From: a virus | Lineage: Duplodnaviria; Heunggongvirae; Uroviricota; Caudoviricetes | Strand: one strand, 5' to 3' | Virus record (IMG/VR): IMGVR_UViG_3300029104_000077 | Location: 1-4,330 of that record | Length of the DNA stretch: 4,330 nt | Part shown: in pieces, positions 1 through 4,330 of the stretch | Layout of the letters: every line of letters begins with the position of its first letter | How positions within the stretch are numbered: the stretch's first letter is position 1 | Made by a program: the position numbers and the translations under genes | Notes under the pieces: model-generated | The model's database searches: none | What the model was told of the DNA's origin: nothing | The model's input: only the letters and a program-made list of their open reading frames with translations

Positions 1-630
1 GCAAAAAATGACCCGTTAACAGTTGACCCGTCAAATATTGACCCCTCAACGGTTGGCCCGTCAAATTTTGATGGATCAACGGTTGATAAAAAACTGCCGG
101 TCAGGGGGGCGATGATTGACCCCGATCCGTCAGTATTAAAACCTGATCCGTCAGATAAAAGATCTTCTTGTCCGGACGTTTCACTGCCGGACGAAAAACA
201 ATCATCACCAGTTGAGCGATTTCTGGAGAAACACCCGGATGCGCATACCTGGAATGTACCGAAGCGACAGTGGGGTACCCGTGAAGATGTCGCCTGTGCG
301 CAGTGGATTTGGGGACGGGTTGTGGCGTTGTATGAACAGGCCGCCAGTGATGATGGTGAGGTGTCACGCCCCCGAGAACCTAACTGGACGACCTGGGCGA
401 ATGATGTGCGCATGATGCGTATGCTGGATGGACGTAGTCACCGGCAGATTTGTGAAATGTTTGGGCGTGTCCAGCGGGATTCGTTCTGGGTAAAAAACAT
501 CATGAGTCCGGCAAAACTCCGGGAAAAATGGGATGAACTGGTTATCCGCCTGGGGCGTTCGCCCGCGCAGCGTTGCGTGAATCACATTTCTGAACCGGAC
601 ACTGAAATACCGCCTGGATTCAGGGGGTGA
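1..630 (+). CDS. Phage replication initiator (lambda O-like), C-terminal portion; 5' end lies upstream of the window
   Basis: Frame 1 is open from position 1 with no stop until TGA 628-630, so the track ORF 112..630 is only the internal-Met part of a longer gene. Positions 1-170 encode a D/P/S-rich low-complexity linker (..DPLTVDPSNIDPSTVGPSNFDGSTVD..DPDPSVLKPDPSD..) coincident with the DNA-level iterons, followed by a globular-looking C-terminal region. It sits 6 bp upstream of a DnaC-like loader gene. An origin embedded in the initiator gene is the established lambdoid arrangement; assignment by organisation, not by recognised sequence identity. Confidence 0.55.
   Translation, partial: AKNDPLTVDPSNIDPSTVGPSNFDGSTVDKKLPVRGAMIDPDPSVLKPDPSDKRSSCPDVSLPDEKQSSPVERFLEKHPDAHTWNVPKRQWGTREDVACAQWIWGRVVALYEQAASDDGEVSRPREPNWTTWANDVRMMRMLDGRSHRQICEMFGRVQRDSFWVKNIMSPAKLREKWDELVIRLGRSPAQRCVNHISEPDTEIPPGFRG
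9..98. repeat. Tandem 15-bp direct repeats (iteron-like), about 5 good copies plus a degenerate sixth; core TGACCCGTCAA with internal dyad TGAC-CC-GTCA
   Basis: Seen directly: tgacccgttaa (9-19), tgacccgtcaa (24-34), tgacccctcaa (39-49), tggcccgtcaa (54-64), tgatggatcaa (69-79), degenerate tgataaaaaac (84-94); constant 15-bp register. Each core contains the inverted half-sites TGAC/GTCA. Confidence 0.75.
9..164. other. Candidate phage origin of replication (iterons + A-rich tract + GATC cluster) inside the initiator coding sequence
   Basis: Iteron array 9-98, A-rich stretch gataaaaaactg (85-96), a second 10-bp direct repeat GATCCGTCAG at 124-133 and 145-154, and four GATC sites at 74, 124, 145 and 161. 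Location within the initiator gene just upstream of the helicase-loader gene matches the lambda ori-in-O arrangement (established knowledge). Confidence 0.6.
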
Positions 631-636
631 CGTGGC

Positions 637-1383
637 ATGAAAAACATTGCGGCAGCCGGGGTTCTTGAACGTATTCGCAGACTTGCACCACAGGGGGCGG
701 TTCCACCGTACCGGACGGTGGAGGAGTGGCGGGAATGGCAGCTTGCTGAAGGACGAAAACGCAGCGAGGAGATTAACCGCCAGAATCGCCAGTTGCGGGT
801 GGAAAAAATCCTGAATCGTTCGGGCATCCAGCCTCTGCACAGCAAATGCTCGTTTGCGAATTATCAGGTGCAGAACGACGGGCAAAAACACGCGCTGAGC
901 CAGGCAAAATCCATCGCTGACGAACTGATGACCGGGTGCACGAATTTTGTGTTCAGCGGTAAAACCGGCACCGGGAAAAATCACCTTGCAGCGGCGATGG
1001 GCAACCGGCTGATGGCGAAGGGGAGCAGCGTGATTATCGTCACCGTGTCTGACGTCATGAGTGTGTTGCATGACAGCTACGACAACGGCCAGTCCGGGGA
1101 AAAATTTTTACAGGAGCTTTGCGGGGTTGATTTGCTGGTCCTGGATGAAATAGGCGTTCAGCGTGAGACGAAAAACGAGCAGGTGGTATTGCACCAGATA
1201 ATTGATCGCCGGACAGCATCACTGTGCAGTGTCGGGATGTTAACAAACCTGAATCATGCCGCAATGAGTACGCTTCTCGGTGAGAGGATTATGGACCGCA
1301 TGACCATGAACGGTGGTCGATGGGTGACGTTTAACTGGGATAGCTGGCGTCCAAATGTCAGCAATCAGAGGGTTGTGAAGTAA
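637..1383 (+). CDS. DnaC-family replicative helicase loader (prophage-encoded DnaC paralog, AAA+ ATPase)
   Basis: 248-aa ORF with ATG at 637 preceded by GGGGG (623-627). The translation contains segments I recognise as near-identical to E. coli DnaC: NRSGIQPLH..CSF.NY, Walker A FSGKTGTGKNHLAAA, Walker B DLLVLDEIGVQ, GMLTNLN, LGERIMDRM. Size and position immediately after the initiator fit a lambdoid replication module that uses a DnaC-type loader instead of lambda P. Confidence 0.9.
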   Translation: MKNIAAAGVLERIRRLAPQGAVPPYRTVEEWREWQLAEGRKRSEEINRQNRQLRVEKILNRSGIQPLHSKCSFANYQVQNDGQKHALSQAKSIADELMTGCTNFVFSGKTGTGKNHLAAAMGNRLMAKGSSVIIVTVSDVMSVLHDSYDNGQSGEKFLQELCGVDLLVLDEIGVQRETKNEQVVLHQIIDRRTASLCSVGMLTNLNHAAMSTLLGERIMDRMTMNGGRWVTFNWDSWRPNVSNQRVVK

Positions 1384-1404
1384 TTTTTGTCGGAGGACGT
1401 TTTA

Positions 1405-2121
1405 ATGGAAACCGTATTTGACGCACTGAAAGCACTGAAAAAAGCCTCTTCACAGGTAGTGGCATCGCGCCTTGGAATCAGCCGTGAAGAGGCGGTCAAC
1501 GAACTGTGGAAACTGAAGCGCCGCGGTGAAGCGGATAACAAGGGTTCGATGTGGTGGCTGATTCAGGCTGGTGAAAGTGAACCAGTGTCACCGGTACCGA
1601 AAGTGACAGCGCAAATGCTGACAGAGGCGATTGAACAACATGGCCCACAAACGGCGGATGAACTGGCACTGATGTTCGGAATTACCTCCCGCCGGGCGAA
1701 TTCATCGCTGGCAATGGCAATCAGCAAAGGGCGTCTGATTCGCGTGAATCAGGGCGGTAAATTTCGTTACTGCATGCCGGGCGATAATTTACCAGCAGAG
1801 CCGGAAGCTGCATCCGCAGCGGAAACGGATGGTAAAGCCTTTCCTCAGCCAGCAGGAGTTGCGTTACCAGTCCAGGAAACAACGACACAGGAAGAAATGA
1901 AAACAGAAATCGAGGAAGACATTGTGAAGTTACAGCCATCGGTCACTGAAGCGAAAGCAGATGACCTGATTCTACCATCGCTGCATGTGGCTAACCGCGA
2001 GCTGCGCCGGGCGAAAAGTGATGTTCAGAAGTGGGAGCGAGTCTGTGCTGCGCTACGGGAACTGAACAAACACAGGGATATTCTCCGGGATATTACCGCC
2101 ACCAGAGAGCAGCAGCGGTGA
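1405..2121 (+). CDS. Hypothetical phage protein with two winged-helix-like segments and an acidic, coiled-coil-like C-terminus
   Basis: ATG at 1405 preceded by GGAGG (1392-1396) at 8-nt spacing, preferred over the TTG at 1387 used by the ORF track. 238 aa. Two internally similar segments ([32 protein letters not shown] and [37 protein letters not shown]) resemble HTH recognition helix plus wing; the C-terminal third is E/Q/K-rich. No family confidently recognised. Confidence 0.6.
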
Positions 2122-2435
2122 GTGGCTGGAAGAAGTGGCGCTGGGCTGAAATCCTGATACTCCGGCAGTGTGCGGGAACGATGAAAGTCGAAAGCATCGG
2201 TTATCTGATTGGCCGTAGTGAGTCAGCCGTCAGGACGAAAGCGCGGGAACTGGGTCTCAGCATGATGTTACGGGGTGATTATCACCAGTCAGCCAAATGT
2301 TCACAGCGTGATATTGAGCTGGCGCGGCAACTGCATCAGCGTGGTGTACCCCGACGGGAAATTGCCGAAAAGTTTGGGATGAAGTTGGGCGCAGTGAATA
2401 ACTACGTTTATTTCGACAGGAGGGTTCAGGAGTGA
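2118..2435 (+). CDS. Small putative DNA-binding protein with two HTH-like motifs (N-terminal GcrA-like / sigma-70 region-4-like motif)
   Basis: Frame open from 2031, but the GTG at 2118 overlaps the upstream stop (gGTGA, 2118-2121) in a coupled arrangement; ATG 2181 is an alternative start. Residues [46 protein letters not shown] resemble the W..E..L..L..G.S...IA..LG....AV..K..RLGL pattern of GcrA-type N-terminal DNA-binding domains; a second HTH-like segment is [34 protein letters not shown]. The motif begins right at 2118, which supports that start over 2181. Confidence 0.5.
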
Positions 2436-2734
2436 GGGTGAGGGTTTATATCGCCGGTCCGATGACGGGATATGAAAATTTTAACCGCGAGGCATTTCAC
2501 AAAGCGGAAGAGGTGCTGAAACGGGAAGGGCATACCGTTTTAAACCCGGCAGTACTTCCGGACGGGCTGACTCAGCCACATTACATGGATATTTGCATGG
2601 CAATGATTCGTTGTGTGGATGCGATTTACATGCTGAAAGGCTGGCAGCAGTCGGCAGGTGCAAGGGCTGAGCTGGCACTGGCGGAGAAACTGGGCCATGC
2701 GGTGATTTTTCAGGAGGTGGGCAGTGAATATTGA
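2432..2734 (+). CDS. DUF4406-like small protein (nucleoside 2-deoxyribosyltransferase-like fold), function unknown
   Basis: 100-aa ORF; GTG start at 2432 overlaps the upstream TGA (2433-2435), with AGGAGG at 2418-2423. N-terminal VYIAGPMTG..NFNREAF, then AIYMLKGWQQSAGARAELALAEKLG with a Glu in the expected position. This matches my memory of the ~93-122 aa phage/bacterial DUF4406 family with one invariant Glu, related to nucleoside 2-deoxyribosyltransferases. Not verified by search. Confidence 0.7.
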   Translation: MRVRVYIAGPMTGYENFNREAFHKAEEVLKREGHTVLNPAVLPDGLTQPHYMDICMAMIRCVDAIYMLKGWQQSAGARAELALAEKLGHAVIFQEVGSEY

Positions 2735-3026
2735 CCCGGCGATAACGATTGATATGGCCCTGAACACCGGCCTGGCGCTTCTTGGTTATTTCTACATCAT
2801 GTTCTGCAGCGGACGATGGCTGTCACTGTTGTTCATGAAAAAATGGAATAAACGCCGTAAGCAGGAGCAACGCCAGAAGGCAATGGATGCATTTTTCGAA
2901 GCCTTCGGGATTGACGGCATGGAACCAGGGGATCCAGCTCGCGCAATTAGCAGAGGGGGCGTAGTAATCCTTGTATACCGGAGTGAAGAGAAAAATGAGC
3001 GAGATCAACTATCAGGCACTGCGTGA
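2724..3026 (+). CDS. Small predicted single-pass membrane protein (hypothetical)
   Basis: GTG start at 2724 with AGGAGG (2712-2717) at 6-nt spacing, 8 nt before the upstream stop (2732-2734). 100 aa with one hydrophobic segment (ALNTGLALLGYFYIMFCSGRWLSLLF) followed by a strongly basic stretch (KKWNKRRKQEQRQK), i.e. a positive-inside single-pass topology. The last ~10 codons overlap the next gene's start, so the exact extent is uncertain. Confidence 0.45.
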   Translation: MNIDPAITIDMALNTGLALLGYFYIMFCSGRWLSLLFMKKWNKRRKQEQRQKAMDAFFEAFGIDGMEPGDPARAISRGGVVILVYRSEEKNERDQLSGTA

Positions 3027-3624
3027 GGCGGCAGTAGCAATTGAAACAGTAGCAACGCCTCAAAAATTGCTGGCATTTCGTATGAAAGTCACACCTCAGG
3101 TTGTGCTGGCGCTACTGGATGAACGAGATGCATTAAACGAACGCATAGCCGAACTGGAGGCTAATTTAGCGGAGCTGGCCGAAGACCAACAGAAAGCGAT
3201 TGAGTCAATTAAGCAGGCTGATGCGGCTGTTAAGTTGGCACACGAGAAGTTTTCGGAGCTGGCAGCGGAGAATGCGGCGCTTAAACAGTCGGAGAAGGAA
3301 TTTAATAACTTCTGTCGTCAGGAGTACTACGGTTGGGAGGACAACTTCACGGAAACCCCAGCCACCGATGCTTTTCTGGCTGAAATTCGTGCGGAAGCAC
3401 GCAACGAGGGGATTAACTATACCGCCAGCCGTCTTGCTGCTGCGTTCAATCACGGATTTATCAATAAGTCTTTGCGTGAAGTTTTCGACGTTACGCGCAT
3501 GATTCTGTCAGCGAAAGAAGAGTTGGCTAATGAACCGCATCCGATTGATGGCCTGTCTGGTGAATATGCGGAAAAATCCCTAGAAGAATGGGCGGAACAG
3601 ATTCGCAAAGGAGGCAACCAGTGA
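2995..3624 (+). CDS. Ea22-like (ead/Ea22 family) phage protein, paralog 1
   Basis: ATG at 2995, preferred over TTG 2971. 209 aa. N-terminus MSEINYQALREAA.. and the segment VTPQVVLALLDERDALNERIAELEANLAEL followed by a long coiled-coil-like region match my memory of the lambda Ea22 N-terminal module (MSEINSQALREAAE...LLDERE...). Not verified by search. Confidence 0.6.
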   Translation: MSEINYQALREAAVAIETVATPQKLLAFRMKVTPQVVLALLDERDALNERIAELEANLAELAEDQQKAIESIKQADAAVKLAHEKFSELAAENAALKQSEKEFNNFCRQEYYGWEDNFTETPATDAFLAEIRAEARNEGINYTASRLAAAFNHGFINKSLREVFDVTRMILSAKEELANEPHPIDGLSGEYAEKSLEEWAEQIRKGGNQ

Positions 3625-4330
3625 GCAAGATTGACTATCAGGTACTGCGTGAAAAGGCAGAAAAAGCAACGTGTGGTGAGTGGTCTCTCGAATATGGAGA
3701 GAGCCGATTTGATGGTGATGATGCACTAATTCATCGCGAGGCTGCTGGATATATTCCCATTTGCAGAATTGAAGGAGCGCATCCTGAAAGCGGTTTCGAT
3801 GAAGATTTCCAAATGGAACAGCAGGCCAATGCTGAATTCATAGCAGAGGCCAATCCGGCTACTGTGCTGGTACTGCTGGATGAACTGGAAGCCGCAGAGA
3901 AGCGCAACGCAAAATTACAAAGCGAGAATGCATACATCCGCAACCGGTACAAAGAACTGGACCTATTAATCGGGAAAAACATTCTTGTCATGCAGGCTGC
4001 GATTATCGAATGGCAGGCAACTGGCGACGCTAAAAGCGGACTGGCATGGATTTATAACACACTGTTTGGCCCAGGCGAGTTGCCGGACGAATCTGAGAAA
4101 GATGCTCAGGCCTACTTTAATCGCAAATATGCACCGATTGACGAAAAGCTTATGGCGCTTCACAAGTGGTTTTGGGAACAAAGTGAAGCCGAATTCGCAT
4201 CAAAGGAGAGTGATATGAGCGCTATTACCAAAGAGCGACTGCTGACAATCAGGCAGTGGCGCGAAACATACGTACCTGGTAGCAACGTTGTACTGCCAGC
4301 AGAAGAAGCGGAAGAACTGGCACGGATTGC
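3621..4330 (+). CDS. Ea22-like phage protein, paralog 2 (3' end beyond window)
   Basis: GTG at 3621 overlaps the upstream stop (GTGA, 3621-3624), with AGGAGG at 3609-3614 at 6-nt spacing. I translated the frame by hand and found no stop through 4330; it is absent from the ORF track only because it has no in-window stop. N-terminus MSKIDYQVLREKAEKATCGEW.. and ..ANPATVLVLLDELEAAEKRNAKLQSENAYI.. share the module seen in paralog 1; the rest diverges. Confidence 0.6.
   Translation, partial: MSKIDYQVLREKAEKATCGEWSLEYGESRFDGDDALIHREAAGYIPICRIEGAHPESGFDEDFQMEQQANAEFIAEANPATVLVLLDELEAAEKRNAKLQSENAYIRNRYKELDLLIGKNILVMQAAIIEWQATGDAKSGLAWIYNTLFGPGELPDESEKDAQAYFNRKYAPIDEKLMALHKWFWEQSEAEFASKESDMSAITKERLLTIRQWRETYVPGSNVVLPAEEAEELARI

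Follow-up and report, generated by a model that had tools for sequence, protein, structure and literature searches.

The locus examined here raises the question of what reaction, if any, is carried out by a 100-residue DUF4406 protein whose gene sits among the replication genes of an Escherichia coli prophage. The window, that is, the whole stretch of DNA analyzed, comprises positions 1 to 4,330 (4,330 nucleotides) of the Caudoviricetes virus record IMGVR_UViG_3300029104_000077, and the gene occupies positions 2432..2734 of its plus strand. A preliminary description of this DNA had assigned the product to DUF4406, a family it related to nucleoside 2'-deoxyribosyltransferases (NDTs) and to N-glycosidases of 2'-deoxynucleoside 5'-monophosphates (dNMPs). 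The explanation favored here, which we judge to have about an even chance of being correct, is that the protein may act on dNMPs as an N-glycosidase or a phosphodeoxyribosyl-transferase. The reaction would proceed through a covalent intermediate on Glu80 (E80), in a manner resembling the phage enzyme DmtZ.

Profile comparison confirms the family assignment. Pfam PF14359 (DUF4406) matches residues 4-93 over model positions 2-91 of 91 (E=2.2e-37, 127.8 bits against a cut-off of 22), and the PHROG family phrog_355, annotated 'nucleoside 2-deoxyribosyltransferase', matches with E=1.7e-47. Weak Pfam matches below threshold to DUF1937, Nuc_deoxyrib_tr and DUF7768 mark related families. No NCBIfam model matches the protein, and a sequence search of the PDB returns insignificant matches only (E of at least 0.02). 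Both hallmarks that had first suggested DUF4406 are present. The YIAGPMTG motif spans residues 6-13, and the conserved Glu lies within SAGARAELALAEKLG, which corresponds to residues 74-88 (nucleotides 2651-2695); the E80 codon is at 2669-2671.

An AlphaFold2 model made with 55 homologues (pLDDT 93.1, pTM 0.86) predicts a small alpha/beta domain with strands at residues 4-8, 35-37, 64-67 and 90-93 and helices at 15-31, 48-59 and 75-87. In a Foldseek comparison of this model with the PDB, nucleoside 2'-deoxyribosyltransferases come first (T. brucei, Chroococcidiopsis, Leishmania and Bacillus), followed by MilB, BcmB and human and rat DNPH1, so that the proposed kinship with NDTs and dNMP N-glycosidases is recovered at the top of the ranking. 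The matches in a library of viral structures are phage proteins labeled 'deoxyribosyltransferase' and two proteins fused to dATP/dGTP diphosphohydrolase. The model also displays the features that define the NDT-like superfamily, a flavodoxin-like alpha/beta fold and a nucleophile Glu that starts the helix after strand beta3. Given the matches in both structure collections, the NDT-like fold of the modeled protein can be regarded as secure. The structural match PA1492 (DUF1937; PDB 1T1J), a 125-residue structural-genomics protein from a different Pfam family, adds no mechanistic information.

Residue equivalences to characterized enzymes come from three independent alignments. The family hidden Markov model (HMM) was aligned with T. 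brucei PDT (TbPDT), and hhalign was used to align 132 family representatives with human DNPH1, whose sequence was verified against PDB chains, and to compare the family with phage DmtZ (E=0.18). The 132 representatives, chosen at 50% identity, are also the sample for the conservation figures given below unless another set is named. In all three alignments the conserved Glu falls on the nucleophile Glu of TbPDT, DNPH1 and DmtZ, and the glycine-rich loop on their loop for phosphate and sugar, so that neither of the refuting outcomes named in the preliminary description occurred.

The YIAGPMTG segment (2447..2470, plus strand, as are all features given here) forms strand beta1 and the loop after it in the alignment with DNPH1. 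Here, Y6 aligns with the catalytic-triad Tyr (DNPH1 Y24, DmtZ Y6) and is Tyr in 85% and Phe in 14% of the family, and G9, M11, T12 and G13 align with DNPH1 G27, I29, R30 and G31. The segment S74-A-G76-A-R-A-E80 (2651..2671) has the S-x-G-x3-E spacing of DNPH1 S98-G100-E104. S74 corresponds to S98 and lies six residues before the Glu, as S98 does before E104; G76 corresponds to G100, and E80 to the nucleophile (DNPH1 E104; LlNDT E98). In DNPH1 the backbone NH groups of I29, R30, G31 and G100 bind the phosphate together with the hydroxyl of S98, E104 and the NH of G27 hold the 3'-OH, and I29 and I76 stack against the base (PMC10483697). After strand beta2, the pair N38-P39 (2543..2548) carries a Pro that aligns with one conserved in deoxyribosyl-transferases (TbPDT Pro, DmtZ Pro57), where it has a described role (PMC12884076). 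P39 is 98% conserved in the family and occurs in 80/80 relatives that are fused to a pyrophosphohydrolase domain.

Conservation is concentrated in these elements. G9, F22, S74 and E80 are 100% conserved, G76 99% and G13 94%. The window protein has all of G9, F22, S74, G76 and E80, and these positions are conserved too in 86 relatives retrieved with a fused protein as the query, where S74, G76 and E80 are each kept in 84-85 of the 86. A different picture emerges on the active-site face of helix alpha2, where Y51, C55 and M58 (2582..2605) align with DNPH1 I76, D80 and W83. DNPH1 D80 is located about 5 Å from E104, beside I76 and W83 (PMC10483697). The invariant core of DUF4406 thus appears to be a deoxyribose 5-phosphate grip plus the nucleophile, with a wall for the base and leaving group (positions 51, 55 and 58) that varies from one subfamily to another.

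Two positions bear on the substrate. The phosphate-specific enzymes DNPH1 and MilB have Ser at the position of S74, whereas NDTs, including nucleoside-specific TbPDT, have an Asp there that binds the 5'-OH. The Ser in the window protein therefore points to 5'-phosphorylated substrates. MilB, which accepts ribose, has Phe at the position of the triad Tyr, and the Tyr that the window protein carries there (Y6) suggests a preference for deoxyribose.

From these features we infer a substrate class, a covalent chemistry that ends in either hydrolysis or transfer, and a biological role. The protein would be a minimal NDT-superfamily enzyme of about 100 residues, produced at an early stage of lytic growth from a transcript shared with the replication genes of the prophage. 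Its substrate would be a 2'-deoxynucleoside 5'-monophosphate, gripped at the 5'-phosphate and sugar by S74, G76 and the loop from G9 to G13. Y6 would keep out a ribose 2'-OH and tune E80, and the base would be sandwiched between M11 and Y51. Attack of E80 on C1' would then expel the base, leaving a covalent 5-phospho-deoxyribosyl-enzyme intermediate. This could be resolved by water, as in an N-glycosidase of the DNPH1 kind, or by another base, as in a transfer reaction of the DmtZ kind. In either case, a particular dNMP would be removed from, or re-based within, the pool that feeds phage DNA synthesis.

The closest characterized counterpart is DmtZ, known from Gordonia phage Ghobes and from Arthrobacter phage Wayne and described in NAR in 2026 (PMC12884076). 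DmtZ is an NDT-fold enzyme that hydrolyzes dAMP and transfers deoxyribose 5-phosphate to 2-aminoadenine, and its gene adjoins or is fused with that of the dNTPase DutZ in actinophages with Z genomes (PMC12884076). Like DmtZ, the window protein is phage-encoded, has the NDT fold, and combines a hydrolase-like, non-acidic phosphate pocket with the transferase-type Pro. The functional residues of DmtZ all align with the window protein, with Y6, P57, N77, G99 and E103 opposite Y6, P39, C55, G76 and E80, and the triad Asp is replaced in both, by Asn77 in DmtZ and by Cys in the window protein. However, DmtZ has 161 residues and a C-terminal Trp124 lid contributed by a second monomer, and it belongs to 2-aminoadenine phages, whereas the window prophage is without PurZ or Z-genome genes. 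DmtZ was considered as a member of DUF4406 itself and rejected, since it matches only PF05014 (18.3 bits) and aligns with the family at hhalign E=0.18.

Another likeness to DmtZ, the neighboring or fused hydrolase that converts dNTPs to dNMPs, is found in a part of the family that differs from the window protein. Sequence comparison shows that DUF4406 splits into two types, of which the stand-alone Cys-type would have a different base pocket. The Asp-type occurs in Pseudomonas phages, actinophages and many Proteobacteria, and its helix 2 reads [C/Y][L/M]-R-x-D-L. The Cys-type comprises the window protein and its enteric and Vibrio relatives, with helix 2 reading Y-M-D-I-C. The types differ systematically at positions 19, 51, 53, 55 and 58 (R/F, Y/C, x/R, C/D and M/E-A). 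Within the enteric Cys-type clade, conservation is at least 90% for Cys55 and likewise for D53. The idea that D53 is a relocated catalytic Asp was considered and is unlikely. Across the family it is conserved in only 39% of representatives, it lies two residues upstream of position 55 on another helical face, turned about 200 degrees from the active site, and it occurs together with R60 (i+7).

Asp-type genes are repeatedly linked to dNTP pyrophosphohydrolases. In Pseudomonas phage phi297, a PF04447 (DUF550) dATP/dGTP pyrophosphohydrolase gene is located directly upstream of the DUF4406 gene, and 52 of 80 phi297-like viral loci have DUF550 no more than 3 kb away. One IMG/VR locus (L146, 1888-3327) encodes both domains in a single polypeptide. 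When this fusion is used as the query, PF14359 and PF04447 occur together in 81 of the best 120 clusters, and the classical Asp is present in 79/85 of the set retrieved. The DUF4406 domain is N-terminal in about 62 cases and C-terminal in about 24, and the existence of both orders implies that the fusion arose more than once. Fused proteins (P0323-P0430, at least 81 clusters) derive from Proteobacteria, an actinobacterial metagenome-assembled genome and uncultured phages. Among actinophages, mycobacteriophage Nebkiss has a MazG pyrophosphohydrolase gene immediately 3' of its DUF4406 gene, and phage Ariel has a weak, sub-threshold MazG-like (PRA-PH) gene two genes downstream. Partners of the DUF550 and MazG types convert dNTPs to dNMPs. 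This gene pairing supports a two-step route for the Asp-type, in which a dNTP would first yield a dNMP, and the dNMP would then either be split into free base and deoxyribose 5-phosphate or receive a different base. The pairing parallels the DutZ-DmtZ system of Z-genome phages.

Two of these actinophage genes are mislabeled in GenBank. Ariel gp162 (L007, 3977-4357) is called 'MazG-like pyrophosphatase' and Nebkiss gp126 (L008, 4010-4297) 'deoxycytidylate deaminase', yet both score 84-87 bits as DUF4406. Comparable mislabels recur across actinophage records.

Several findings weigh against the proposed dNMP chemistry for the window protein. The first is that the link to dNTP pyrophosphohydrolases holds for the Asp-type only, and the window protein, with Cys55, stands outside that module. 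An HMM built from the fused partners finds DUF550 near none of 80 enteric Cys-type loci, nor in the window or in locus L001, and the annotation of the near-identical prophage of strain OkiPb01717 contains none over 27 kb. The second is the triad. C55 occupies the position of the triad Asp or Asn (DNPH1 D80) in all three alignments, and this position is Cys in 62% and Asp in 17% of the representatives, with A, T, G or S in the rest; the window protein thus lacks the classical acid/base. The third is length. The protein is 30-60 residues shorter than every characterized relative and stops after the fourth strand, with no C-terminal extension beyond the 20 residues that follow E80. In DNPH1, the active site is composite, and a C-terminal helical extension gives Ser128', Ala129' and Met130' to the partner's site (PMC10483697). 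DNPH1 (Rcl, 2'-deoxynucleoside 5'-phosphate N-hydrolase; about 145-174 residues) has both an E55/H56 helical element and this 128-133 extension, which is supplied by the partner; the window protein lacks the two of them, has Cys55 in place of Asp80 and shows no significant sequence similarity to it.

The sequence relationships themselves are also weak. The hhalign E-values to characterized enzymes range from 0.04 to 0.18, and PF05014 (Nuc_deoxyrib_tr), at 14.8 bits (E=0.033), remains below its gathering score of 28.8. The active-site equivalences therefore rest on three alignments that are individually insignificant, though mutually consistent and supported by the fold matches, and they should be read as probable assignments. 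Finally, the literature searched names DUF4406 in three papers, in passing only, and makes no mention of PF14359, DUF1937 or PF09152, which agrees with the earlier remark that the function of phage DUF4406 proteins is not established.

The replacement at position 55 may be less damaging than it first appears. The triad acid/base is D80 in DNPH1 and D72 in LlNDT, but it is Asn in TbPDT and DmtZ, and both of the Asn-bearing enzymes are active (PMC12884076). In addition, a pH-rate profile can still be measured for DNPH1 D80A. Loss of the Asp thus need not abolish activity.

The missing C-terminal part may have a counterpart elsewhere in the family. A 203-residue version of DUF4406 (P0148-P0176), exemplified by a gene of E. 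coli plasmid pMTY12355_3 (L175, 3501-4109), has a C-terminal extension of about 105 residues that has no Pfam match and might replace the absent portion of the NDT fold. This version is common on P1-like phage-plasmids of about 92 kb, where it occurs beside Ref and Icd-like genes. Among 20 longer representatives, the N- and C-terminal extensions contain no Pfam domain besides DUF4406.

Other known enzymes differ from the window protein in ways that bear on both substrate and size. The CMP (hydroxymethyl-CMP) N-glycosidases MilB and BcmB belong to the same fold group, but MilB has about 158 residues, uses Arg23 to bind phosphate and carries the Phe associated with ribose, and it is part of antibiotic biosynthesis clusters. 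The NDTs proper (LlNDT, TbPDT and CtNDT; PF05014) share more at the N-terminus, where KIYIAGP is nearly identical to the start of TbPDT, and both their Pro after beta2 and their nucleophile Glu align with those of the window protein. However, the Asp at the position of Ser74 means that they bind the 5'-OH and not a phosphate, and they have about 140-160 residues, of which C-terminal ones complete the neighbor's site.

The same shortcomings of the active site are the basis for the best-surviving alternative, in which the protein is a non-catalytic nucleotide binder, such as a sponge, sensor or regulator, that has kept the sugar-phosphate pocket of an NDT but lost turnover. Cys55 in place of the triad Asp and the absence of the extension that completes a partner's site would both be explained. 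The invariance of E80 could then reflect binding alone, since the nucleophile Glu of DNPH1 also hydrogen-bonds the 3'-OH (PMC10483697), and sequestration of signaling nucleotides by small phage proteins is a known counter-defense strategy. However, position 55 varies even in relatives that are fused to a catalytic dNTPase partner, Asn variants such as TbPDT and DmtZ are active, the D80A mutant of DNPH1 still yields a pH-rate profile, and 85% of representatives retain the Tyr that tunes the nucleophile. A protein that only binds nucleotides is improbable, although it deserves more weight than any of the explanations that follow.

A somewhat less probable proposal keeps the dNMP chemistry and gives the enteric Cys-type a role in conflict instead of housekeeping. 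Its remodeled pocket, with Y51, C55 and M58 in place of the C, D and E or A of the Asp-type, would make it a dNMP-specific N-glycosidase or base-exchanger with a particular target. It could destroy a non-canonical or signaling-precursor deoxynucleotide, for example, the hydroxymethyl-dCMP or hydroxymethyl-dUMP of superinfecting phages with modified DNA. Hydroxymethyl-dNMPs are the substrate class of DNPH1 and MilB. By analogy with the T5 phosphatase Dmp, which blunts dITP-based (Kongming-type) immunity, it could instead deplete dAMP or dIMP to similar effect.

Less likely again is an N-glycosidase directed at NAD+, at nucleotides derived from ADP-ribose or at other signaling nucleotides, in the manner of TIR domains or the NDT-like effector of retron Ec86, with a function in defense or counter-defense. 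Neither the DUF4406 protein nor its neighbors match PADLOC defense models beyond noise, and TIR families are absent from the Pfam matches of the protein even at E<=1. Structurally, NDTs, MilB and PA1492 rank above TIR structures, the Ser-x-Gly-x3-Glu spacing fits the mononucleotide phosphate site of DNPH1, and no sensor or regulator partner is present. Least likely is a classical nucleoside 2'-deoxyribosyltransferase that swaps bases between deoxynucleosides in salvage, the label used in phrog_355 and in many GenBank records and favored by the top Foldseek matches (NDTs and PDTs) and the conserved transferase-type P39, because the family has an invariant Ser where NDTs carry the 5'-OH-binding Asp, the window protein scores about half the PF05014 cut-off, and relatives are coupled to enzymes that yield dNMPs rather than nucleosides.

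Which of these explanations is correct matters for a large group of genes. When the family profile is compared with 1.84 billion representative proteins, at least 21,483 clusters (50% identity) match at E<=1e-3. The family occurs in hundreds of cultured phages, and homologues are found in 582 of 50,697 phage records and in 366 plasmids, almost all of which are phage-plasmids that are non-mobilizable. Close copies of the gene (at least 80% nucleotide identity) are present in 1,210 of 5,426 complete E. coli genomes, or about 22%. The gene is thus already publicly annotated as DUF4406 and very common in prophages. This prior annotation in more than 1,200 E. coli genomes, the Cys at the third triad position and the lack of the C-terminal extension are additions to the preliminary description. 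If the dNMP-directed activity is real, it would represent a widespread step of nucleotide-pool editing in the biology of temperate phages, and possibly a new player in nucleotide-based conflict between phages and hosts. If the protein proves to be a routine salvage enzyme, the main gain is a corrected annotation. A domain of unknown function is narrowed to a dNMP-directed hypothesis that can be checked by experiment.

The open reading frame (ORF) at 2432..2734 is a real, working gene. It encodes 100 residues from a GTG start codon, and RefSeq annotates identical coordinates (WP_096857751.1, 'DUF4406 domain-containing protein'). The median dN/dS is 0.079 in 31 pairwise comparisons with distinct enteric homologues, which indicates that the protein is maintained by strong purifying selection. 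A Shine-Dalgarno-like AGGAGG (2418..2423) can be read in the sequence 8 nucleotides 5' of the start. The GTG itself overlaps the stop codon of the upstream gene for a helix-turn-helix (HTH) DNA-binding protein (2118-2435, limits from RefSeq) in a GTGA sequence at 2432..2435, suggesting translational coupling of the two genes within the operon. At its 3' end, the gene overlaps the first 11 nucleotides (2724..2734) of the DUF4752 gene (2724-3026), as located by the ORF list, Pfam and RefSeq. Overlaps on both sides constitute a tightly packed operon arrangement. An alternative in-frame GTG at 2438 has its own AGGAG and would yield a product of 98 residues; some homologues use the equivalent start, and it could be the true one here. 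The choice does not affect the other analyses of the protein.

The phage context given in the preliminary description can be made more specific. By comparison with annotated relatives, the window represents the early-right region of an E. coli prophage of the Rac-like, lambdoid kind, and the DUF4406 gene is part of its replication operon. The prophage of strain OkiPb01717 is 99% identical over window positions 1-3002. Its genes occur in the order integrase, excisionase, exonuclease, dicB, LexA-family repressor, Cro/CI-family regulator, YdaT, O-like replication protein, DnaC-like loader, DUF1627, HTH protein, DUF4406, DUF4752 and Ead/Ea22, with RusA, an antiterminator and lysis genes farther downstream. 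The same arrangement is seen in O111:H11 strain 8D and in phage Rac-SA53 ('rac19', 92% identical), except for the gene directly upstream of DUF4406.

This upstream gene is swapped among near-identical prophages (window 2118-2435 compared with L174, 9146-9541). It encodes the HTH 'DNA-binding protein' in the window, DUF977 in O111:H11 strain 8D and LygF in Rac-SA53, and the replacement implies a recombination joint at the start of the DUF4406 gene. Across 53 loci in enteric prophages, the commonest immediate upstream gene accounts for 14 and the commonest downstream gene for 8. A fixed partner gene for enteric DUF4406 was therefore rejected, as its flanks are mosaic.

Other genes in the window have features of their own. 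The O-like replication initiator at 112-630 is represented by its C-terminal part, and its gene starts upstream of the window. Its last 24 or so residues (ending QRCVNHISEPDTEIPPGFRG) match the C-termini of DnaT (NF002770) and of several phage replication-protein PHROGs that are different elsewhere. In related loci, this tail also closes at least one further O-like protein whose remaining sequence differs, and it may be a portable helicase-loader docking motif. The DUF1627 (YdaW-like) protein at 1387-2121 contains two winged-helix-like segments and weakly resembles, below threshold, AlkZ-like DNA glycosylase and AbiEi antitoxin HTH domains. The DUF4752 protein, whose gene overlaps both of its neighbors, has a hydrophobic N-terminal stretch (ALNTGLALLGYFYIMFCSGRWLSLLF) and for this reason looks like a small membrane protein. 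An Rfam scan of the window gives no match. Positions 3631-4330 contain no ORF longer than 86 residues on either strand, and their GC content drops to about 0.47. In related prophages, the region that matches this segment consists of gene fragments and is located upstream of hokD.

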